In this document: positions 36,896 through 46,725 of the stretch, piece by piece
Numbering within the stretch: position 1 is the first letter of the stretch
How the letters are laid out: each line of letters opens with the position of its first letter
Assembly: GCA_947449135.1 (NCBI GenBank)
Contig: CANFQO010000001.1
Location: 84,946-148,945, forward strand
Length of the DNA: 64,000 bases
Source: Planctomycetaceae bacterium
GTDB taxonomy: Bacteria > Planctomycetota > Planctomycetia > Pirellulales > UBA1268
Direction of reading: 5' to 3'
Position numbers and translations under genes: made by a program
The notes under the pieces: generated by a model
Told to the model about the DNA's origin: nothing
Database searches by the model: none
The model's input: the letters and a program-made list of their open reading frames with translations, nothing else

Positions 36896-39800
36896 TCAGT
36901 GCAGCGTGCCGTTGAGCGAGCCCTTCACGAGGGAGCCATCGGCGGAAGGAAGCTGCCAACTGAGGGCGTAGCAACGGGTCGCGGCGAATCCGGGGACTGT
37001 CAGTGTGATGGTGCGACCGTCGGCTGAGAGGGCGGCACTCTCGATCGCCCGGTCCTGCTCGTCGCGGTGGGGAGATCCATACTCCTGCGTGCGGTCTATC
37101 TCCCAGGTCCGCAGCTGCCAGGCATCCGGCTTCTCGGCTCCATCCGCCAGCGGCGTGGAGAACGTCAGTTCCAAAATCCCGGGAGCGGCATGCAGCGACA
37201 GCGGCAGCCGCAATGGATGGAGCGTGCGGCGCACCCGGAAAAATCCACCGGGCGCCGTGCGGTTGCCCGCCCAGGCGTGCAGGCCGCAGGCGTAGAGCTG
37301 GCCATCGGCTGGAGAAAAGCGGCCCCGCATGATGCCGGTCGGCAGATCGTCCATGGGCAGTGGCACCAGCCCGCCCTGCAGCACCATGCCGCCCGAGCCA
37401 CGCGGATCGATGACTCGCTCGGTCAGCACCAGATGAATGCGTCCCTCGCCGTAGGACAGTTCGAGCAGGTGTCCCGAGAGCGGCTCGAACCGCCCCGACG
37501 GCACCCGGAGCAGTTCGGCAGGCGAACGATCGAAGGCGTTGGTGATCCAGACCGCCGGAGGCTCCATCGCCGAATCGCTGGCGTCGGTGATGCCGTGGAA
37601 GCCGAGCATGTTGCCGTAGAAGCCACCCGCCCGAACATGATTGATTCGGTTCTTGGGATTCCAATGCCCCTCCTGATCGGTCACCCAGAATGTGCCGTCA
37701 TCCTCCACGCAGACGCCGTTGGCAGCCCGGAATCCCTGCGCAACGATCTCCGTCCCGCTGCCATCGGGCGTCACCTTCAGGAGCGTGCCATGGTGGGGCA
37801 CGACGGCAGGCAGGGCGTGGCGGGCACTCTTGGCGTAGTAAACGTTGCCCGCCGCATCGGTCTCCAGGCCCATCGCGAATTCGTGAAAATGCTCGGTGAC
37901 CTGGTGGTCATCGTTGAAGGTGTCGTAGCGGTCGGTCTGGCCGTCACCGTCGAGATCGATCAGCCGCACGATCCGGTCGCGGCAGCCGACATGAACGATG
38001 CCGTTGATGACCTTGATGCCAAGCGGCTGATAGAGACCGGAGGCGATGCGCCGCCAGACGAGACGCCCGTCGGCCGCTGTGAGCCCCTCCACCCGCCAGA
38101 CATCCCCATCCCAGGTGCAGAGCAGGGCGGTGGTTCCGCGTGCGTCCAAAAAATCGAGGCCTGAGAAACGCAGCTGTGCGTTCCAGGGATTCTGAATGGG
38201 ACCTGTGAGCCCATCGACTGCCAGCGGCCCGCTCTCGTCGCCCTTGACCATCTGCGTGGACAACGGCGTGGCCCAGAGACTCTGCGCTGCCCGCCCGATC
38301 AGACTCGAGGGACTCGGTGGAGTCACCAAGGAGACGAGTGAATCCACCGGCGCTTCGGCGGAAGCGAAGGCGACATGGACATCCAGTGGCAGGTCGCCAG
38401 CAGGAACGAGCAGGTCCACAAAGCCATCACGTTCGACCAGTTGTGGTGAGGGGTTTTCACGCTGCTCTCCGACGATGCGGGCAATCGCCGGCAGCATCGC
38501 CAGCCGGGCAGCGAGCGGCTGCGGTCGGGGGCCGAACGAAAACGAACGCAGGGCCACGGTGGGAGTGGTGGCCGGAGCGCCGTCTGCACCCACTCCAATG
38601 GATAGTTGAGGCATGCTGGCCGACTCGAGCACGCGTGTGTTTCCCACCCGATACTCCAGCACAACCTGATCGCCAGCATGGTGCACCGCAAGAAAGCGGG
38701 CATGGGGAAGCGGGCCGTAGGGAAGCCCATCCCTGCCCAACGGTCGAGGATCGGCAAAGCTTCCGGTGGCGGGATCGGCCCAGCCGGGCTGAGTGGCCAG
38801 TTGCACAAGCACGTCGCCTGAGAGCCGCGGATGGGCTCCATGACGGCCGTCGAAGTTGATCCCCGCCCAATCGATGAAGCCACTGCCGGTCCAGATGGCT
38901 GCCGTGCGGAGCGTGTCGAGTTCATGCAGAATCCAGGCCTGCCCGCGGCCCACACCGCCGGGGCCGGCATCGAGCCGCACCGCCAGTCCCTTGCGGGCCA
39001 CGTTGCTGCCGTCGCTGCCGACCTCGAAGCTGCCGGCCAGGAACGGCCCGTAGTCGTGCAGCCGCCAGGTTTCAAGCGACGCCGGCTCTGGTCCGCGGGA
39101 TGTTCCCCGCGGCAGGCCGGCCAGATAGTCAGGGCCGACTTCCGCATAGAGCGAGGGATTTCTTTCCCGGAAGAACGTCTCTCGCAGGTAGTGGATGACG
39201 TCGTACTTCTGGCTCGGCACCATCCAGGTCTGTGCCACCATCTGGCCAGTGCCGCTGGTGAGCGTGCGGTAGAGGCTGTAGGGATCGCTGCCCGCCTTTA
39301 GCCGCGCCTGTGCAAAACGGGGAGCCGTTGGTAATGAGCCCGGGGCATCGAGCGTGCCGTGGCAGTTGGCACAGACTCTTTGATAGATGTCCCCTCCGCG
39401 TTTGAGAGCCGCCCGGGAGATTGAAGGATCGGCCCAGTCGCCGACAAAGGCGGCGTGGTCGATGTCGTTCTCCCAGGCAGCGGGCTGCGCGGCGGCGAAG
39501 AAAGCGGGATCGGGCCGCAGTTCGGCGGCGCGGGACGGACCGCCTTGGGCGATAGCCACCAGATAGGCCACGAGGTCGAGAAACTGCCCCCGGTCAGCCA
39601 ACAGGTTGACCAGCCCCGCCGGCATCAACGACACCGTCGATGGAATGGACGCCTCGATTGAGCCGCGGGGGATCGAAAGCTCCCTTCCGGCGGCTGCGGC
39701 GTCGCGGAGCACCAACTCCTCCGGTGTCTCGCGCATCACGATCCCAGTCAGGCTCATCCCCTCATCGTTGACGATGGTGATGCCGCGGTATTCGGGGCGG

Positions 39801-40162
39801 ATCGTGGCGGAGGGCGACAGCAGCGATTCCACCACATAGGCAGGCAACTGCTCGTTCCTGATGTCCGCGGGCATCCGGGCGAGGTCGGGGCCGAGGGCCA
39901 CAGGGCCTGCACCGGTGCTGTGGCAGGTGGTGCAGGCGAGCTGCGCGGTATGAAACACCCGGGCCCCGCGGCTGGCGTCGCCGGCGTTCACGCAGGCATC
40001 TGCCAACGTCTGCCGATCCTCAGTCGAGAGCCTCTCGGCCAATCCACCTCCCTGCTGCCCCTGTATCGGGCTCCCGCCAAGCCCGAGGACAAGTGCCATC
40101 GACAACACCGCCCATGGCAGTGGTCGGGCAGAGCTCGGCAACGTGCAGCGGGTGAGAACCAT
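36896..40162 (-). CDS. Large secreted protein: two N-terminal c-type heme motifs + membrane-bound-dehydrogenase-like beta-propeller + Ig-like C-terminus
   Basis: Signal peptide; heme motifs CTTCHSTGAGPVALGPDL and CANCHGTLD. A later block, GLYQPLGIKVINGIVHVGCRDRIVRLIDLDGDGQTDRYDTFNDD, is typical of the Pirellula/Verrucomicrobium-type putative membrane-bound dehydrogenase domain. Confidence 0.75.
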   Translation of the reverse strand: MVLTRCTLPSSARPLPWAVLSMALVLGLGGSPIQGQQGGGLAERLSTEDRQTLADACVNAGDASRGARVFHTAQLACTTCHSTGAGPVALGPDLARMPADIRNEQLPAYVVESLLSPSATIRPEYRGITIVNDEGMSLTGIVMRETPEELVLRDAAAAGRELSIPRGSIEASIPSTVSLMPAGLVNLLADRGQFLDLVAYLVAIAQGGPSRAAELRPDPAFFAAAQPAAWENDIDHAAFVGDWADPSISRAALKRGGDIYQRVCANCHGTLDAPGSLPTAPRFAQARLKAGSDPYSLYRTLTSGTGQMVAQTWMVPSQKYDVIHYLRETFFRERNPSLYAEVGPDYLAGLPRGTSRGPEPASLETWRLHDYGPFLAGSFEVGSDGSNVARKGLAVRLDAGPGGVGRGQAWILHELDTLRTAAIWTGSGFIDWAGINFDGRHGAHPRLSGDVLVQLATQPGWADPATGSFADPRPLGRDGLPYGPLPHARFLAVHHAGDQVVLEYRVGNTRVLESASMPQLSIGVGADGAPATTPTVALRSFSFGPRPQPLAARLAMLPAIARIVGEQRENPSPQLVERDGFVDLLVPAGDLPLDVHVAFASAEAPVDSLVSLVTPPSPSSLIGRAAQSLWATPLSTQMVKGDESGPLAVDGLTGPIQNPWNAQLRFSGLDFLDARGTTALLCTWDGDVWRVEGLTAADGRLVWRRIASGLYQPLGIKVINGIVHVGCRDRIVRLIDLDGDGQTDRYDTFNDDHQVTEHFHEFAMGLETDAAGNVYYAKSARHALPAVVPHHGTLLKVTPDGSGTEIVAQGFRAANGVCVEDDGTFWVTDQEGHWNPKNRINHVRAGGFYGNMLGFHGITDASDSAMEPPAVWITNAFDRSPAELLRVPSGRFEPLSGHLLELSYGEGRIHLVLTERVIDPRGSGGMVLQGGLVPLPMDDLPTGIMRGRFSPADGQLYACGLHAWAGNRTAPGGFFRVRRTLHPLRLPLSLHAAPGILELTFSTPLADGAEKPDAWQLRTWEIDRTQEYGSPHRDEQDRAIESAALSADGRTITLTVPGFAATRCYALSWQLPSADGSLVKGSLNGTLH

Positions 40163-40313: not shown

Positions 40314-40793
40314 TCATGCTGCGTTCCATGTCCGGCGGACCTCGGCCAGTCCGGCGACGCAGACGTCATATTCGCTGCTCAGACGTTCGAGCAGGAGCCG
40401 TTCCGCGGCGGCCTCCTCGGGCTCGAGCGCGCTGGCCATCCAGTAGGCCCGCCGGCCGACGACACGGTAGTCGAGGGGCTCCATGCGCTGCAGCGCCTCA
40501 GGATAGACGCCCGTCCAGAAGAGCGTCGCATCGCCTATACGCCGGTACTCCTCGATCGCTGCAGCAGCCGGCGGCTGCGACACACCATCCAACAGCCGGG
40601 CCAACCGTTCGCGATCGGCAGCGGTACGGTAGGGGAACACGCGGAGATCGTCGCTGCGGATGAACCGTACGAGAAGCGTCGCCACGTACTCGACCAACGG
40701 CGGATCGACCACACCGATCTGGCCGTGGAACACGTTCTCGGTCAGTCCTCTAAAAAACCGGTCGACGTCATCTTGGTCACTGGCGGAAAACAT
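40314..40793 (-). CDS. Hypothetical protein (159 aa), no recognisable family
   Basis: ATG 40793 is preceded by a strong AAGGAGG at a 10-nt spacing. Composition is coding-like, but I recognise no motifs. Confidence 0.6.
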   Translation of the reverse strand: MFSASDQDDVDRFFRGLTENVFHGQIGVVDPPLVEYVATLLVRFIRSDDLRVFPYRTAADRERLARLLDGVSQPPAAAAIEEYRRIGDATLFWTGVYPEALQRMEPLDYRVVGRRAYWMASALEPEEAAAERLLLERLSSEYDVCVAGLAEVRRTWNAA

Positions 40794-40934
40794 GGTCGAG
40801 CAGCCTCCTTGGCCCTCACACGCTTCTTCCGAAAAACCCAATGCTCATTCTATCAAAAGTCGCAGAAAGCGATCATCGGGCTTTGGTATCGACAGCACTC
40901 TCTGCATCGTCTCCGCTGCCCTGCGCGGTGGCCT

Positions 40935-43900
40935 CTAGTGAACCGTGTTCTCACCGACGCGACTCCCAGCCGACGACAGAGCGGACGGATGCAGTTCTCG
41001 AGCATCCGCGTTGCTTCGCCCCCGGAGCGGCCGTGGCGTGGCAAGGGCGGCAAGCACCTGCGCGGGGCCGAGATGCCCGCGTCGTCCGCCATACCACGCC
41101 ACGGAACGGTCCACGACGGGCAGCGTCCGAAATTCGCAGTCGTGCGGATGGAATTGCCGGCCGTCGTAGACCAGCACCTCTCCGCTCGACGGACTCCACG
41201 CCGCCAACTGCACCCAGCGGTTGTCGAACAGCCGCCTGACGGCTGGCGACCGGTCGGCAGCGGACAGAATATCTTCCGGTTCGGCATCGACCACCATCAA
41301 AAGACGCAGCGGTTCGTGGATCTCCACCGTCTGCCATGGGAGTCCGGTGCGCAGGTCGCTGGCGTGGCCGTCCATCACGCCCAACAGCCCGGTAATGTTG
41401 TGGGGGAGCTTGGTTCCGCACCCAAACCGCAGTCGATCGACCCGCGAGAAGTAGTAGGCCAGATTGATCCCGGAAGCGACGGGGCAGACCCCGGCGAGCG
41501 TGCGGGCCAGTATGTCGTTGTCATTGTCGGACTGTGGATCGTAGGACACGAGGAACGAGCGGCGATCGAGGAACAGGCCACGGGTCCGTGCTCTCCGCCC
41601 GATCAAGCAGACGGCGTTGGTGGCGTGTCCGAGTTCCGGACGAACCTGCGCCATGTCTGCGGCTCGTGATGCGACATGCGACAGCGCAGCTGCAGGCGTG
41701 ACGTTCAAGGGCACGTCATGAAATCGCCGGCAACGTTCGTGCGCGTCTGCGGCGGACACCTGCCTGCTGACGGCGGTCAGTCGCCGCATATCCTCCGCAT
41801 GCGTCTCGGGAACGAGTTGCTCGTCGTACCAGGTCAACTCGTTGGTACAGGTGTCGAGGATTCCACCGACAAAGCATGTGTCGGGCGCGATGCTCAATCC
41901 CCACTCGGCGAGTTGGCGGCGGACACGAGCGTCATTCGCCATCAGTGCCAACGCCCGGGCATTGGCGCCGCCGGGCCTGCCGCCGCACGCGCCACAATGA
42001 TAGGCGCTCTCGTGCGGGTTGTTGGAGCTCGTCGACCCATGGCCAACGACCGCAACCAGTCGGGCGAGACGGTGGGTGATGCCGATATCCTCCAGCGTTC
42101 TACGGACGGATTGTGCCATCGTGACAATGTCGAAACCGAGCGGCAGACCGTCTTCCGACACGGTGTCGCCGACCCGCTCGATGACAAGCCGCGTGCCGAC
42201 GCCAGCACCCGACGTCCCGGCGGTACGTGGGATCATGCGGGCCGCAAGTCGTGGGAAGAGCACCCGGGCTACCAGTGGAATCGTCGCCAGGGCGCCGAAA
42301 AAAGTCGCGAAGATGCCGCCACAGAACGAAGTGACACCGCCGGTCGTAAAAGCCGCCCGCAGGAGACTGGTGGCCCGAGTCACGTGCCTGCGGGTCGAAC
42401 AGAGCTTTTCCGAACCGAGGGCTGGCACTTCGATGACCGCGTTCGTCGGCCGCATGACGATGGGGCACAGTGATACCGGATGCCAGTCATCAATGCCGCG
42501 AAACGACATCGGCACGGAGAAGAATCCGGCAGTCCCAAACGTCTCATATGCCTGCCCCAGCTCTTCGAGGTGCCGCCGGAACGACTCACACCTCTCGTCC
42601 ATGCAGAAGACAGCCTGGACGAGGGGAGTGATGCACTCCGACACTGGTTGCATGCTGCCATGCACGGTGAGCGCGTCGAGCATCGTATTGCGATGGCGTC
42701 GCTCGTACGCCAGATGCAGGATTTTGCGCCGGCTCATCCCATCGAATGTCATGATCGCGTTCTCAAACCGCAGCAGCTCATTTTCGTCGAGCCCGCGGAT
42801 ATCGTCGGGAGTGAGCCCCGCCAGCTGGGAAATCTGGTGAAGAAGGAGTGCCCGGGCGAGCGTGCCGGGGCCTCGGCGTTGCGGAAAGTGATCCCGCAAC
42901 TCCGTCCACAGGCTCGGCAACGAGCAGCCGGCACCACGGCCGGTCGGCGCGTGTAGTCGCGTGGCGGCCCACTCCGCCGCGACCCGGTCGCAGACGAGCC
43001 GCAGCGCGAGGAAATCGATCAGCCGGGCGTTGATGGGCACAGCAGGCGCAAGATCTGGCCGGTCTTCGAGTTGGCGAATCATCCCGGCCCAGCCTCGCAG
43101 CGCAAGAAGGCTGTCACGAATGAATTCGTCCCAATACGTCTCCGGTACCCCGAGCAGCGTCAACTCTCGGGCCACAACTTCGCTGGCATCGCGGCCCTGC
43201 GACTGCTTCAAGGCTGTCGGAACGCCCAACGCCCACGCCTCGCCCCGCCACACTCCCCGTGACCATGACCGGGCGACCGCCTCGAGCAGCCCGCGATCGC
43301 GGCCTGGCATCGGCCAGCGGGCCACGCCCTGGTCGAGAAACGCCGAGCACCATCGAATCAAAAGCGGGTGCACCAACTCGTCGGTGTCGATCGAGGGATT
43401 GACGGCCCGCACGAGGTCCCGGTGCCGTACCGGCGGCTTGTTGAAGCGCAGGGGAGAACCGGTCTGAGACACCGCGACGATGCAGGCATGCCAGAGATCG
43501 CTCGACACGAACTGCTCGTCGGCCGGCTGACCCAAGGGCTGTGTGCGGTCACGGACTGCCGCGTGAGCGGCCACGTCATCGGGAGAACGAAACACGGAAT
43601 CAGGAGCCGTGTGGTGAGACGCAGACGACGTAGCAAGCGTCTCACGAAGAAGATGCCAACGCACGTCGGGGGCGAGATCGTCGCGCAGCCGCTCCACAAT
43701 GTCCTTTTCCGTCAACGTCCATCGCGCTCCGGCGTCGGATTCGCGGCATACGGAATGGAGAAGAATGAGCCTGTGCAGTTCTCTCAGCAACAGCTTTCCG
43801 TGGCAGACAGACTCGTCGAGCGACTGCGTTCGATGCTCTTCGGTAAGCACCGCATCGATGTCAGCCGCGGTGATCCTGCCACGGGCGAGTTCCTCCCGGT

Positions 43901-44126
43901 ATTGCTCCTCGGACAGGTAGGTTTCGGCCTGCAACAGCTTGGAGGCGGTGACCATCGCCTGCTCGAAGGGCTGAGATTCCAGGAAACTGACAGGGTTCTG
44001 CGCGACGAACGTGGCGAGCGGCCCCTGCTGGGGGAGGCACGCTCGTGAGACTTCGACCGCCCGCATGACCCGTGTTCTCTGCTCGGCTGTCACTTCGTCC
44101 ACGGCGTGATCCCGTTGGTTTTGCAT
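40935..44126 (-). CDS. dabA: DUF2309 / DabA-type protein (putative inorganic-carbon pump subunit A)
   Basis: Contains the DUF2309 hallmark blocks. These are QAVFCMDERCESFRRHLEE (Cys-x-Asp), VVGHGSTSSNNPHESAYHCGACGG (His and Cys 15 residues apart), and the C-terminal QVRPELGHATNAVCLIGRR...FLVSYDP...INLAYYFSRVD...GTKLPHNITG. Start at ATG 44126 (GGAAAG upstream); the longest ORF starts at 44225. Confidence 0.85.
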   Translation of the reverse strand: MQNQRDHAVDEVTAEQRTRVMRAVEVSRACLPQQGPLATFVAQNPVSFLESQPFEQAMVTASKLLQAETYLSEEQYREELARGRITAADIDAVLTEEHRTQSLDESVCHGKLLLRELHRLILLHSVCRESDAGARWTLTEKDIVERLRDDLAPDVRWHLLRETLATSSASHHTAPDSVFRSPDDVAAHAAVRDRTQPLGQPADEQFVSSDLWHACIVAVSQTGSPLRFNKPPVRHRDLVRAVNPSIDTDELVHPLLIRWCSAFLDQGVARWPMPGRDRGLLEAVARSWSRGVWRGEAWALGVPTALKQSQGRDASEVVARELTLLGVPETYWDEFIRDSLLALRGWAGMIRQLEDRPDLAPAVPINARLIDFLALRLVCDRVAAEWAATRLHAPTGRGAGCSLPSLWTELRDHFPQRRGPGTLARALLLHQISQLAGLTPDDIRGLDENELLRFENAIMTFDGMSRRKILHLAYERRHRNTMLDALTVHGSMQPVSECITPLVQAVFCMDERCESFRRHLEELGQAYETFGTAGFFSVPMSFRGIDDWHPVSLCPIVMRPTNAVIEVPALGSEKLCSTRRHVTRATSLLRAAFTTGGVTSFCGGIFATFFGALATIPLVARVLFPRLAARMIPRTAGTSGAGVGTRLVIERVGDTVSEDGLPLGFDIVTMAQSVRRTLEDIGITHRLARLVAVVGHGSTSSNNPHESAYHCGACGGRPGGANARALALMANDARVRRQLAEWGLSIAPDTCFVGGILDTCTNELTWYDEQLVPETHAEDMRRLTAVSRQVSAADAHERCRRFHDVPLNVTPAAALSHVASRAADMAQVRPELGHATNAVCLIGRRARTRGLFLDRRSFLVSYDPQSDNDNDILARTLAGVCPVASGINLAYYFSRVDRLRFGCGTKLPHNITGLLGVMDGHASDLRTGLPWQTVEIHEPLRLLMVVDAEPEDILSAADRSPAVRRLFDNRWVQLAAWSPSSGEVLVYDGRQFHPHDCEFRTLPVVDRSVAWYGGRRGHLGPAQVLAALATPRPLRGRSNADARELHPSALSSAGSRVGENTVH

Positions 44127-44550
44127 GGTCAGATCTTTCCTGGAGGCAGAATTGGCGGCAGAAGGCTGGTCCGCGGAATGCCGATGTCGGTTGATGACGA
44201 GATGGCAAAGCAAATGCGACGCCACCGCCGGCTTGCAATGCAGTTAGGAGTGACATCGCTGGCGGAAATCGTGAGCTTTTGCGTCGCGAGAGCGTCACCG
44301 TGTGTCGGAGCGCGTGCGGCCGAGTGCCTACAATGCGGGCACGGGCACCATCGTGGTGCCGAAGAAAGTGGCATGCCGGCCGCGACAGCCCGTGAGACTG
44401 CCCACAAGATCGAGGCCGCCATCGTCAGCACGCAGCGGGGATCCCGGACCTGCGCCGCGTGGACATCAGGACGACATCACACGCAAGCGGCATCGTTTCG
44501 GACCAGCCCGCACATCTGATGGGTCTTCCGCACGCCCCGCTCCGGGGTCG

Positions 44551-46725
44551 CTACTCTGCCGGAAACGGCCCCGTGAACACCAGTCGCTCGCCCGTGGAGT
44601 CAAATCCCGTCAGATACGGGATCGATGCGGAAACGAGCGTACCCGCGTGTTCACCCCGGATCACGTAGCCCTCCGCCCAGACGTAGTTATCGAGTCCGCG
44701 GACGTAGAGTTCTGCGGCATAGGGCTGGGGGCGGCCTGGGAGCGACTCGGGCCAGGATGCTCCCCCGAAATACAGGTCAGGCCAGCGATTACCACGGTCG
44801 GGATCCATCGGATCAACGACGAGGATCTCTGAATGCCCGCCGGCACCCCAGTGCGCGGCGACCGCATGAGCGTCCGTTCCGACCGTCCAGCGAATGTGGC
44901 CCGCGCCAGAGCGGCCGGAGTTGCGAAAGAGCGAGATCGCCAGGTCAGTCGCACGAATGCAGTCGAAGACTCCTCGCGCGAGCGCGTCGCGGAGCGTGAG
45001 CGTCGCACCATACTGTCCGCCACGATCGGCTATCTCGTCGGCCCGGCGGCAGGCGTCCGTGAACGCCTCGACGGACGTGCCGGTCAACGCACTCGCCTCC
45101 TCGACGAGACGCGGGTGGAAGCGGTCGCCCCACTCCATCCCGGCGAACGAATGTCCGCGGTAGAAGAGCACGCCCATCAACTGCTCCACCGTGGCGTTGG
45201 GCATCAGCTGGTCGAACCGCCGCAGCACCTCGCACTCGCGCGCGAGACAGCCGGCGTTATCCGCGCGAAACAGCATGTTGATCAGAAAACTGCACTCGTA
45301 GGGCGTGCGAGCCGCCGCAGCGAGCGTGCGGCGGTTCCCAAGCGACAGACAGTTCGCGAGCGCCATGTAATTCGCCCGTCTCGCCGGCGGCACGACCGTA
45401 CTTTCGCCGGAGATGTATTGCTCGTCCTGCAACGCTTCCAGGCGATCATCCGGCATATGAAATATCCTCTCAGCCTGCCGCTCCACCTCCAGGAAGTTGG
45501 CCCGGCCATGCAGCGTGAGCATGCCGGCCGGTAGACAACTCGCGCTGCTGAGGATGTCGTAACGTCCGCCATGCTCGTCGATCGCGCGAAATGGCTCTGG
45601 GCATGCCTTCTGAAACCGCAACGCGGTGTCGTAGTTGCCAACCAGACGGTCGAGCCAGCGGTGCAGGTCGACGAGCCAAAAACTTGCCGACGCCAACTCG
45701 GCCGACCACCGTCTCGTCAGCCCAATGTCGCGATTGCGCACGGCTTCGTTCAGTCGGCAGAGGCAGAACCCGGGCCATGTCGATTCGTCGGAGAAATCCA
45801 CCGGGCGGAGTTCGTCAGGGAAGGCTGCGGCCGCCGCCACCAGATCGGCCAAGGCCTGCGCCTCGACATGGAACTGCTCGGCAGCCTCCCAGGCCGGCTG
45901 GTTGATCCGTTGCTCATTCACGAGAAACTGTTGAAGCCGCGATTGATGCCAGCGGAAGTCGTCCATGGCGGTCGTCAGAGACTCGCGTCCGGGGATGAGA
46001 AGCATCGCGACTGTCGTTCCCGGACCGCCGTTGAGATCGCCCATGTCCGGGGGAATTTGGTTGGACAGCGTCCCATCTGCCACAGGGCTGATGCAGCTCT
46101 TGCCCTTCGGATTCCGGCTCCCGAGCAGGACGACCCGGCTCAGTGGCAGGCAGTGCAAGGCACGTCGCTCGAGTGACTCGAACATAGAGGCCGGCCGTTC
46201 GTGAGACGGCGTGGCAGCAACGCGAACAGACGGCAACGAGGATGTCACTGTCAGCCCGTTTCCGGGGAACACACTCTCGAAGAAGGACGCTTGGGCGGCA
46301 CCGATGCCGGCGAGGACGACGCCCGAGACCGTGCCGACGGCCGCGCCGAGCACGAGCAACCGGACGAGATCGAGGTCGCGTCGCTGCCTCACCGTGGACT
46401 GCACGAGAACGGTCACGGTGGTAAGGATGCCCAGCAGCATGCCGGCGCTCCAGCCCGCGATCGCCGGGGCGACTCCATCGCTCACACCCGACAGCATCCG
46501 TGCGGCGGTCGCGAGAAGGGCAATGCACCCGCCGGCGCGGATGCCGAAGAACCAGGTCGCCAATGTCACCGGAACGAGGTAGAAAAAACTGAGCGAGAAA
46601 TTGCGCAGCACGATCGAGTCGAAAAAGAACACGACACCGAGGCTGCCGAGAACCGTTACCCAATGGAGCAACGGATGCCAGGCTGTGCCGGCTCTGTCGC
46701 GGCTTTCTGTCGGTTTTGCAAGCAT
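44551..46725 (-). CDS. Membrane-anchored protein: 4-5 N-terminal TM helices (DUF4118-like), large unknown middle, C-terminal transglutaminase-like Cys-His-Asp core
   Basis: The N-terminus, SLSFFYLVPVTLATWFFGIRAGGCIALLATAARML, resembles DUF4118 sensor helices. The C-terminus, GVFDCIRATDLAISLFRNSG...HAVAAHWGAGGHSEILVVDPMD, fits the transglutaminase-core order C...H...D. The domain calls are tentative; the ORF itself is convincing. Confidence 0.6.
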   Translation of the reverse strand: MLAKPTESRDRAGTAWHPLLHWVTVLGSLGVVFFFDSIVLRNFSLSFFYLVPVTLATWFFGIRAGGCIALLATAARMLSGVSDGVAPAIAGWSAGMLLGILTTVTVLVQSTVRQRRDLDLVRLLVLGAAVGTVSGVVLAGIGAAQASFFESVFPGNGLTVTSSLPSVRVAATPSHERPASMFESLERRALHCLPLSRVVLLGSRNPKGKSCISPVADGTLSNQIPPDMGDLNGGPGTTVAMLLIPGRESLTTAMDDFRWHQSRLQQFLVNEQRINQPAWEAAEQFHVEAQALADLVAAAAAFPDELRPVDFSDESTWPGFCLCRLNEAVRNRDIGLTRRWSAELASASFWLVDLHRWLDRLVGNYDTALRFQKACPEPFRAIDEHGGRYDILSSASCLPAGMLTLHGRANFLEVERQAERIFHMPDDRLEALQDEQYISGESTVVPPARRANYMALANCLSLGNRRTLAAAARTPYECSFLINMLFRADNAGCLARECEVLRRFDQLMPNATVEQLMGVLFYRGHSFAGMEWGDRFHPRLVEEASALTGTSVEAFTDACRRADEIADRGGQYGATLTLRDALARGVFDCIRATDLAISLFRNSGRSGAGHIRWTVGTDAHAVAAHWGAGGHSEILVVDPMDPDRGNRWPDLYFGGASWPESLPGRPQPYAAELYVRGLDNYVWAEGYVIRGEHAGTLVSASIPYLTGFDSTGERLVFTGPFPAE

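Follow-up and report, generated by a model that had tools for sequence, protein, structure and literature searches.

The DNA considered here, a stretch of 64,000 nucleotides of contig CANFQO010000001.1 from a Planctomycetaceae bacterium (hereafter the window), carries on its reverse strand a gene for DabA, the carbonic-anhydrase-like subunit of DAB CO2-hydrating pumps, and no gene for DabB or DabC, its PF00361 partners in such pumps. The dabA open reading frame (ORF), at positions 40935-44126 (-), was intact and encoded 1063 aa from an ATG at 44126 with AGGAAAG 5' of the start; a GTG at 44225 would give an alternative, longer form. A public gene call had a product identical to the 1063-aa protein. 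The Pfam family PF10070 (DabA/DUF2309) was matched end to end, over profile positions 5-747 of 747, with an E-value of 3.3e-221 and 737 bits (cut-off 25). It was the only profile matched at E <= 0.01, and the canonical beta-carbonic anhydrase profile PF00484 was not among the matches. Sequence searching found one solved relative, Halothiobacillus neapolitanus DabA2 (PDB 9rd0_A; phmmer E = 6.6e-65). The full-length PF10070 match, the zinc site, and the lid with the elbow hairpin were all present, and judged from its sequence the gene encodes a genuine DabA, the cytoplasmic beta-carbonic-anhydrase-like subunit of the DAB CO2-hydrating pump family, as a preliminary description of the stretch had proposed from its intactness and DUF2309 hallmarks.

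The phmmer alignment placed FCMDERCE over FCIDVRSE and GHGSTSSNNPHESAYHCGACGG over GHGSSTTNNPHRAGLDCGACAG of DabA2. The zinc-site motifs and nucleotide positions given in the preliminary description were correct, the motif residues aligned one to one with C351, D353, H524 and C539 of 9rd0_A, and all zinc-site residues (Cys-x-Asp-x-Arg and His-15-Cys) were invariant among 28 relatives. The features of the gene were as follows:

40935..44126 (-), dabA coding sequence, 1063 aa, PF10070/DUF2309, member of a DabB-less planctomycete clade (Pfam, neighbor-joining tree, and the ratio of nonsynonymous to synonymous substitution rates, dN/dS)
42591..42605 (-), C508-M-D510-E-R512, beta-carbonic-anhydrase-like site, codons checked, invariant in the 28 relatives
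42603-42605 (-), C508, first zinc ligand, aligned with C351 of 9rd0_A
42597-42599 (-), D510, Asp of the Asp-Arg dyad, aligned with D353 of 9rd0_A
42591-42593 (-), R512, Arg of the Asp-Arg dyad, aligned with R355 of 9rd0_A
42519..42536 (-), lid motif G531-TAGF-F536, corresponding to GI(A/G)GFFG, conserved (motif as defined in 10.64898/2026.05.01.722082)
42462-42467 (-), lid loop C554-P555, conserved, forming the gating lid together with residues 531-536
42234..42341 (-), elbow or "finger-like" hydrophobic helix-loop-helix, residues 596-631, GGVTSFCGGIFATFFGALATIPLVARVLFPRLAARM (sequence alignment and AlphaFold2)
41994..42041 (-), H696...C711 within GHGSTSSNNPHESAYHCGACGG (alignment with 9rd0_A; T. 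albus H694/C709 in 10.64898/2026.05.01.722082)
42039-42041 (-), H696, second zinc ligand, aligned with H524 of 9rd0_A and equivalent to T. albus H694
41994-41996 (-), C711, third zinc ligand, aligned with C539 of 9rd0_A and equivalent to T. albus C709
41625..41627 (-), H834 in RPELGH, at the conserved Leu of RPEWGL (T. albus L825, H. neapolitanus L658; alignment)

The elbow hairpin inserts into the membrane and into DabB in the DAB1 and DAB2 structures. The His at position 834 was a trait of the entire planctomycete DabA clade, shared by proteins with and without an adjacent dabB; RPE[L/Y/C]GH was found in all planctomycete loci compared (L002-L113; L832, G833 and H834 at 41625-41633 in the window), as against RPEWGL in DabA1 and DabA2. 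The Trp whose mutation uncouples DAB2 (W656) was also missing from planctomycete DabAs. The conserved Leu (T. albus L825, H. neapolitanus L658) blocks bicarbonate binding, and CsoSCA has a proposed proton-shuttle His397 at that position (10.64898/2026.05.01.722082). Glu444 of the finger motif, essential in DabA2, was considered as a clue and set aside as uninformative, since planctomycete DabAs, whether operonic or orphan, lack an equivalent residue.

The preliminary description had also found no DabB/NuoL-type gene in the 64 kb, and three kinds of scan agreed. No ORF exceeded nine predicted transmembrane segments in a six-frame hydropathy scan, the multi-spanning ones being EamA, a BPD_transp_2 permease, FtsK, an ion channel and a TPR-containing membrane protein. 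PF00361 was not matched by any window ORF of at least 200 aa, essentially all of which were scanned against Pfam, and tblastn of the window with planctomycete DabB and DabC at E <= 1 returned nothing but one spurious 25-bit match. The arrangement typical of a DAB pump, in which dabA adjoins a PF00361 dabB (plus dabC in DAB1), was thus not found in the window.

The operonic relatives and the DabB-less clade

A protein search with the window DabA returned 674 homologs at E <= 1e-10; the top 120 were about 950-1120 aa long, and all named ones were planctomycete. About 115 genomic contexts were compared, comprising the best 80 loci from species-representative genomes, 27 metagenome loci and exact-protein look-ups. 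The usual planctomycete layout was dabA followed directly by two PF00361 genes, dabB and dabC. In 79 loci with Asp, Asn or Glu at the coupling position (see below), dabB lay immediately downstream, usually with dabC as well. The first PF00361 gene encoded about 447 aa and carried Proton_antipo_N, and the second encoded about 510 aa and matched profile positions 83-293 (L004:13102-15974; L007-L085, L095-L111). This two-gene layout looks like a distinct DAB operon subtype.

Downstream of the planctomycete dabABC genes there were often sbtA, a PII gene and hypF/hypB/hypA, with hypF a few genes downstream of dabABC(-sbtA-PII) in ten loci (L004, L026, L027, L030, L098, L102, L104, L106, L109 and L111). 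More generally, there was a recurrent synteny between the DAB locus and the [NiFe]-hydrogenase maturation genes hypF, hypB, hypA and hypC/D/E, often with sbtA and the PII gene in between (L004:10001-23105, with a hydrogenase small subunit; L098, L102, L104, L106, L109 and L111; L086-L088 and L113). This synteny suggests that inorganic-carbon supply is linked to hydrogen metabolism in these freshwater planctomycetes.

The window DabA fell into one clade nested among operonic DabAs, with support from 100 of 100 neighbor-joining bootstraps. Besides the window, its members were L002/L003 (77% identity), L086, L087, L088, L089, L090, L010, L013, L014 and L112, with L006, L011, L093, L094 and L097 having limited flanks. 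Tblastn-type searches found no DabB or DabC match at E <= 1 for the clade's loci within up to 10 kb on each side, and every member with sufficient flanking DNA was without dabB and dabC. These DabAs are referred to here as orphans. MAG sources in the clade include GCA_040397545.1 (L086) and the assemblies with contig prefixes CALQRA01 (L010), CAMBFA01 (L014) and CANGGT01 (L013). No description of a DabB-less DabA, or of DUF2309 in Planctomycetes, was found in the literature.

The gene order within the clade points to how the partners were lost. In L086, L087, L088 and L113, dabA was followed by a gene for a PQQ_2 beta-propeller and then by hypF, often with hypB, hypA, hypC, hypD and hypE after it. 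Because hypF synteny is common to the operonic relatives and the orphan clade, the comparison of gene orders points to a deletion of dabBC in place, with dabA having stayed at its ancestral locus instead of moving away. In the sub-lineage of the window and L002, the locus was rearranged further and the residual hypF synteny was gone.

At the place of dabBC, directly downstream of most orphan dabA genes, lay a gene for an exported PQQ_2/BamB-like beta-propeller with a signal peptide (L086:13218-14546; L087:4873-6141; L088:13529-14614; L089:3734-5068; also L010, L013, L014, L112 and L113). A 35% homolog in L002 was two genes away on the opposite strand, and none was present in the window. The propeller was considered as a general new partner of DabA and rejected: its signal peptide marks it as exported and therefore not a plausible cytoplasmic partner, and it was missing from the window and L090 and on the opposite strand in L002.

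A second DabB-less lineage, independent of the first and placed elsewhere in the tree, was seen in metagenome-assembled genomes (MAGs) of Schlesneria (L055:1117-4146, L057:10001-13018 and L063:10001-13018). Its DabAs kept both the bridging Asp and the Arg discussed below, and were flanked by genes for an inverse autotransporter, a colicin-type DNase and fliI/fliH.

The genes of the orphan clade bore the marks of continued use. Nei-Gojobori dN/dS was 0.12 between the window and L002 and 0.14-0.19 within the other sub-clade, values that indicate purifying selection at the sequence level. Mean pairwise identity was 0.689 in the orphan clade, against 0.684 in the sister operonic clade. The ORFs were intact in all completely sequenced members (about 1036-1063 aa), and full-length intact ORFs were kept in more than 12 members diverged to 57-59% identity. 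The clade kept its zinc ligands and Asp-Arg dyad, both parts of the lid (GTAGFF and C554-P555) and the NNPHESA loop, and by every sequence criterion the orphan DabA is still functional. In the lake metagenome locus L113, the orphan dabA had a -1 frameshift in a run of C within the NNPH codons (L113:7417-7429), beyond which HESAYHCGACGG reads on undamaged in the shifted frame; the shift is explained either by a sequencing error in the homopolymer or by the gene having very recently become a pseudogene.

Substitutions diagnostic of the clade

Among the alignment columns with at least 90% conservation in 66 operonic DabAs, a column-by-column comparison singled out two, and only two, that differed throughout the orphan clade, at window positions H710 and T583:

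41997..41999 (-), H710, clade-diagnostic, equivalent to T. albus D708 and H. neapolitanus D538, immediately preceding the second zinc Cys
42378..42380 (-), T583, second diagnostic position, just N-terminal to the elbow, aligned with R422 of 9rd0_A

The equivalence of H710 with T. albus D708 and H. neapolitanus D538 is unambiguous because the motif NNPHESAY[D/H]CGACGG is ungapped. The column held Asp in the operonic DabAs (Asn or Glu in six distant ones) and His in the orphan clade (Leu in L086). In the window, H710 thus stood in place of the bridging Asp that is conserved before the second zinc Cys in DAB pumps. Among DabA1 proteins, T. albus D708 is strictly conserved. Its side chain forms bonds with R331 and H328 of the DabB alpha3 helix and its backbone positions a water adjacent to the zinc-bound one; as a candidate proton relay, it would give DabB control over regeneration of the active site (10.64898/2026.05.01.722082). 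The Asp altered in the clade is exactly that singled out by the 2026 studies as the DabA-DabB bridge and possible proton relay.

At the T583 column, all 66 operonic DabAs had Arg, and the orphan clade had Thr, Ala or Ser except in the basal L090. The elbow (residues 601-640) showed the largest drop in conservation relative to the operonic relatives (0.61 vs 0.74), with its hydrophobic character kept.

In a predictive test, 120 database homologs were scored on positions 583 and 710 alone. Orphan-type residues stood at both positions in eight, and one more, P0037, combined Arg with His. Orphan status was predicted and then confirmed by the absence of dabB in all three previously unexamined loci: P0010 (dabA-PQQ_2-hypF), P0026 (dabA-PQQ_2) and P0037, where a convergent peptidase M16 gene lay downstream. 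In the metagenome set, Asp occurred with dabB in 15 of 15 loci with sufficient flank, and His with PQQ_2 or without dabB. Loci sorted by the coupling residue were distributed as follows:

Asp, Asn or Glu: dabB downstream in 79 loci; without dabB, with enough flank, in 3 (all Schlesneria)
His or Leu: dabB downstream in 0 loci; without dabB, with enough flank, in 13

Other residues that contact DabB were retained. E706, N702, N910 and G920, equivalent to T. albus E704, N700, N901 and G911, were invariant, the equivalence of N910 and G920 with N901 and G911 having been set by motif matching with an approximate residue offset.

An AlphaFold2 (AF2) monomer model of the window DabA, built from 28 aligned sequences, had a mean predicted local distance difference test (pLDDT) of 73.6 and a predicted template modelling score of 0.77. 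Helices near the elbow were predicted at 573-599, 607-613 and 615-631, with low pLDDT. The low-confidence stretches covered the elbow (591-641), the NNPHESAYHCGACGG loop (702-719), RPELGH (827-833) and residues 894-936. In the model, these disordered stretches are the elements that pack on DabB in the solved complexes; the pattern does not discriminate between hypotheses, because an operonic DabA modelled as a monomer would probably look alike. Foldseek of the model against a PDB fold library, apparently one without 9rd0, gave nothing significant (beta-carbonic anhydrase 7coi_A at E = 1.1).

Possible functions of the orphan DabA

We tentatively favor, at a little under an even chance, the explanation that the orphan DabA is a DabB-independent, probably membrane-anchored, non-vectorial carbonic anhydrase. 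It would descend from a planctomycete dabA-dabB-dabC operon from which, in one lineage, both antiporter-like genes were deleted in place, together with the neighboring sbtA and PII genes where present, dabA alone being kept. The protein retains the catalytic apparatus (zinc site and Asp-Arg dyad) together with the gating lid and the hydrophobic elbow hairpin; the DabB-bridging Asp has become His (Leu in one member), and the otherwise invariant Arg before the elbow has been lost. It would interconvert CO2 and HCO3- without a dedicated proton-conducting partner, providing a heterotroph with bicarbonate as a naturally uncoupled carbonic anhydrase that is probably tethered to the membrane. In carbonic anhydrases His is a classic proton-shuttle residue, and proton transfer, which DabB controls in the pump, may in the orphan have passed to the new His beside the zinc site. 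A few point mutations, or even a single one, can turn DabA into a non-vectorial carbonic anhydrase in the laboratory (10.64898/2026.05.01.722082). That sbtA and the PII gene were dropped as well suggests that the lineage gave up active carbon accumulation altogether. The broader claim, that the whole clade consists of self-sufficient membrane-anchored carbonic anhydrases freed from the proton-conducting partner, with the Asp-to-His change as an internal proton shuttle, is possible and is put forward with greater reserve.

The coupling of proton flow to one-way CO2 hydration in DAB was taken up only in 2026, in two cryo-EM studies and a suppressor screen, and a lineage that discarded DabB and DabC while keeping DabA under selection offers a ready-made evolutionary experiment on this coupling. 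If the orphans are indeed carbonic anhydrases, they would be nature's counterpart to the DabA mutants "decoupled" in the laboratory and would constitute a previously unrecognised subclass derived from a vectorial pump, and energy coupling would appear to be switched by one residue. The clade also carries a warning for annotation: a PF10070 match, even under the name "inorganic carbon transporter subunit DabA", is not in itself sufficient evidence of a carbon pump, a caution that matters where carbon-concentrating capacity is deduced from metagenomes.

Several observations weigh against a DabB-independent enzyme. The experimental hallmarks of a DAB pump are accumulation of inorganic carbon that depends on the proton motive force and rescue of a carbonic-anhydrase-free E. 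coli strain that requires both subunits; the dabA2 gene alone fails to rescue such a strain (10.1101/476713), and the laboratory-decoupled variants are only modestly active, with the DabB protein still present (10.64898/2026.05.01.722082). The loci with His or Leu trace to essentially one evolutionary event, and their counts are to be read as consistency and not as statistical independence. The second orphan lineage, that of Schlesneria, retains both the Asp and the Arg. Finally, elements that contact DabB are still conserved in the orphans (the elbow, E706, N702 of the NNPHESA loop, N910, G920 and the C554-P555 lid), a pattern that a partner encoded elsewhere would also give.

Such a partner is the basis of the strongest alternative, which we regard as quite possible while short of probable: the orphan DabA would still be a vectorial, energy-coupled CO2 hydratase, its membrane partner being encoded elsewhere in the genome. 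The candidates would be a relocated DabB/DabC or another PF00361 protein of the NuoL/NdhF or MrpA type, comparable to the docking of CupA/CupB on NDH-1. This would account for the elbow hairpin and most of the DabB contacts being kept under purifying selection, for the coincidence of the AF2-disordered regions with the DabB-packing surfaces, and for the inactivity of DabA alone in H. neapolitanus DAB2 (10.1101/476713). Against it, dabBC were lost at the ancestral locus while dabA was not relocated, sbtA-PII was lost too where it had been present, and the DabB-bonding Asp and the invariant Arg were replaced across the clade. In addition, none of five GTDB MAGs with the orphan form had a second planctomycete-type dabA operon among the best 80 loci, a weak point since MAGs are incomplete and the set was limited to those 80. 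The favored explanation, by contrast, supposes that no partner exists elsewhere in the genome. The Schlesneria orphans would provide an independent replicate for this question.

A non-catalytic or regulatory role for the orphan, as a CO2/bicarbonate sensor or scaffold using the gated, buried site without turnover, appears improbable. Purified wild-type DAB2 is reported to bind CO2 without hydrating it in the absence of a proton motive force (10.64898/2026.03.13.711513), and the orphans conserve both the gating lid and the buried site. However, the catalytic residues are all strictly kept (the three zinc ligands, the Asp-Arg dyad and the His at the L825 position), and no signalling domain was found fused to DabA or as a conserved neighbor.

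That dabA is a decaying, functionless relic of a lost DAB operon is disfavoured and very unlikely, although its partner genes are gone and L113 carries a frameshift, which may be a sequencing error in its homopolymer: the divergent members retain intact ORFs at dN/dS of 0.12-0.19 and are as conserved as their operonic relatives.

Flanking genes and comparison with known systems

The genes on either side of dabA were as follows:

44551..46725 (-), 724-aa membrane-anchored hypothetical protein, upstream of dabA, no Pfam family above threshold
40314..40793 (-), 159-aa hypothetical protein (175 aa from a TTG at 40841), downstream of dabA, no Pfam/NCBIfam match

The 724-aa protein (window 44551-46725 (-)) had an N-terminus of about five transmembrane segments and a large C-terminal domain without a Pfam domain. 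Its family is tiny, with 13 proteins in a database of 5.8 billion, and the named members and neighboring genes suggest a planctomycete origin.

The preliminary description had offered these two proteins as alternative partners of DabA, and had given the intergenic gaps, correctly, as 424 nt upstream and 141 nt downstream. Both genes are co-directional with dabA, and the same layout occurs in L118 and L119 (DabA 94-96% identical) and in the 100%-identical contig L001. The neighborhood survey nevertheless found no co-conservation with dabA across the approximately 115 loci: beyond strain-level relatives of 94-100% identity, no homolog of either protein was present. The 159-aa protein adjoined dabA solely in relatives whose DabA was 94-100% identical to that of the window (L001 and L119), and unrelated genes surrounded the 77%-identical DabA (P0002). 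A 64% homolog of the 724-aa protein came from the same metagenome sample as P0002 (ERZ23495216), on a different scaffold and not beside dabA, and another homolog, P0123, was likewise not beside dabA. With gaps of 424 and 141 nt in place of tight operon coupling as well, it is hardly credible that either or both proteins stand in for DabB. The neighbors are not conserved beside DUF2309, and the novelty that the preliminary description had attached to them is removed. Its intact DabA, zinc site and absence of DabB from the 64 kb stood, its lead on the flanking genes did not, and its three alternatives (dabB elsewhere, a different partner, or another function) are still the right set.

Downstream of the 159-aa gene, at 36896-40162 (-), lay a gene for a 1088-aa protein combining a TIGR02603 CxxCH haem-binding region, a cbb3-type cytochrome c, DUF6797 and a PVC-type beta-propeller region, in the same layout as in the close relative L119. 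The gene content of the window was that of a typical heterotrophic planctomycete, with PSCyt1/PSCyt2/PSD1, DUF1501, sulfatases and a PVC-type haem-binding protein. Genes for RuBisCO and hydrogenase were absent from the 64 kb, as were hyp genes. An Rfam scan of the whole window gave 0 matches, and a promoter/terminator scan near dabA gave signal at chance level.

Among described systems, DAB1 of T. albus and H. neapolitanus shares with the window DabA the PF10070 fold family, the Cys-Asp-Arg...His-Cys zinc site, the GxAGFF lid, the Cys-Pro lid loop, the NNPxESA..CGACGG loop, the membrane elbow hairpin and, with DabA1, a length of about 1000 aa. The nearest operonic relatives of the window DabA also have the three-gene dabA-dabB-dabC layout. 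Unlike DAB1, the window has neither dabB nor dabC in 64 kb, the equivalent of T. albus D708 is His, and RPELGH replaces the RPEWGL of DAB1, with both the conserved Trp and the conserved Leu substituted (the Leu by His). The third gene also differs, encoding a PF00361 protein of about 500 aa in planctomycetes, whereas the DabC of T. albus has only half the size of NuoM and belongs to no Pfam family.

With DAB2 (DabA2-DabB2, 9rd0), the zinc ligands align exactly, and the finger-like motif and the beta-carbonic-anhydrase-like double domain are the same. DabA2, however, is 827 aa long, its N-terminal region is shorter, no acidic residue of the planctomycete elbow corresponds to its Glu444, and it requires DabB2 for activity. 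MpsAB of Staphylococcus aureus, homologous to DabAB, provides a heterotroph with dissolved inorganic carbon and takes the place of carbonic anhydrase, but its DabA-like MpsB is always encoded with the DabB-like MpsA. CupA/CupB (ChpY/ChpX) of cyanobacterial NDH-1MS belong to an unrelated protein family and are similar in concept, in that a CO2-hydrating subunit docks on a PF00361 antiporter-like subunit; they serve as a model for a partner encoded elsewhere, docking being proposed here by analogy only. CsoSCA is of another family, is cargo of the carboxysome shell and lacks both the membrane hairpin and the long N-terminal helical domain. It is nevertheless the closest structural relative of DabA according to the DAB1 study (10.64898/2026.05.01.722082), and it is a free-standing carbonic anhydrase without energy coupling that carries H397 at the position of the planctomycete His834.

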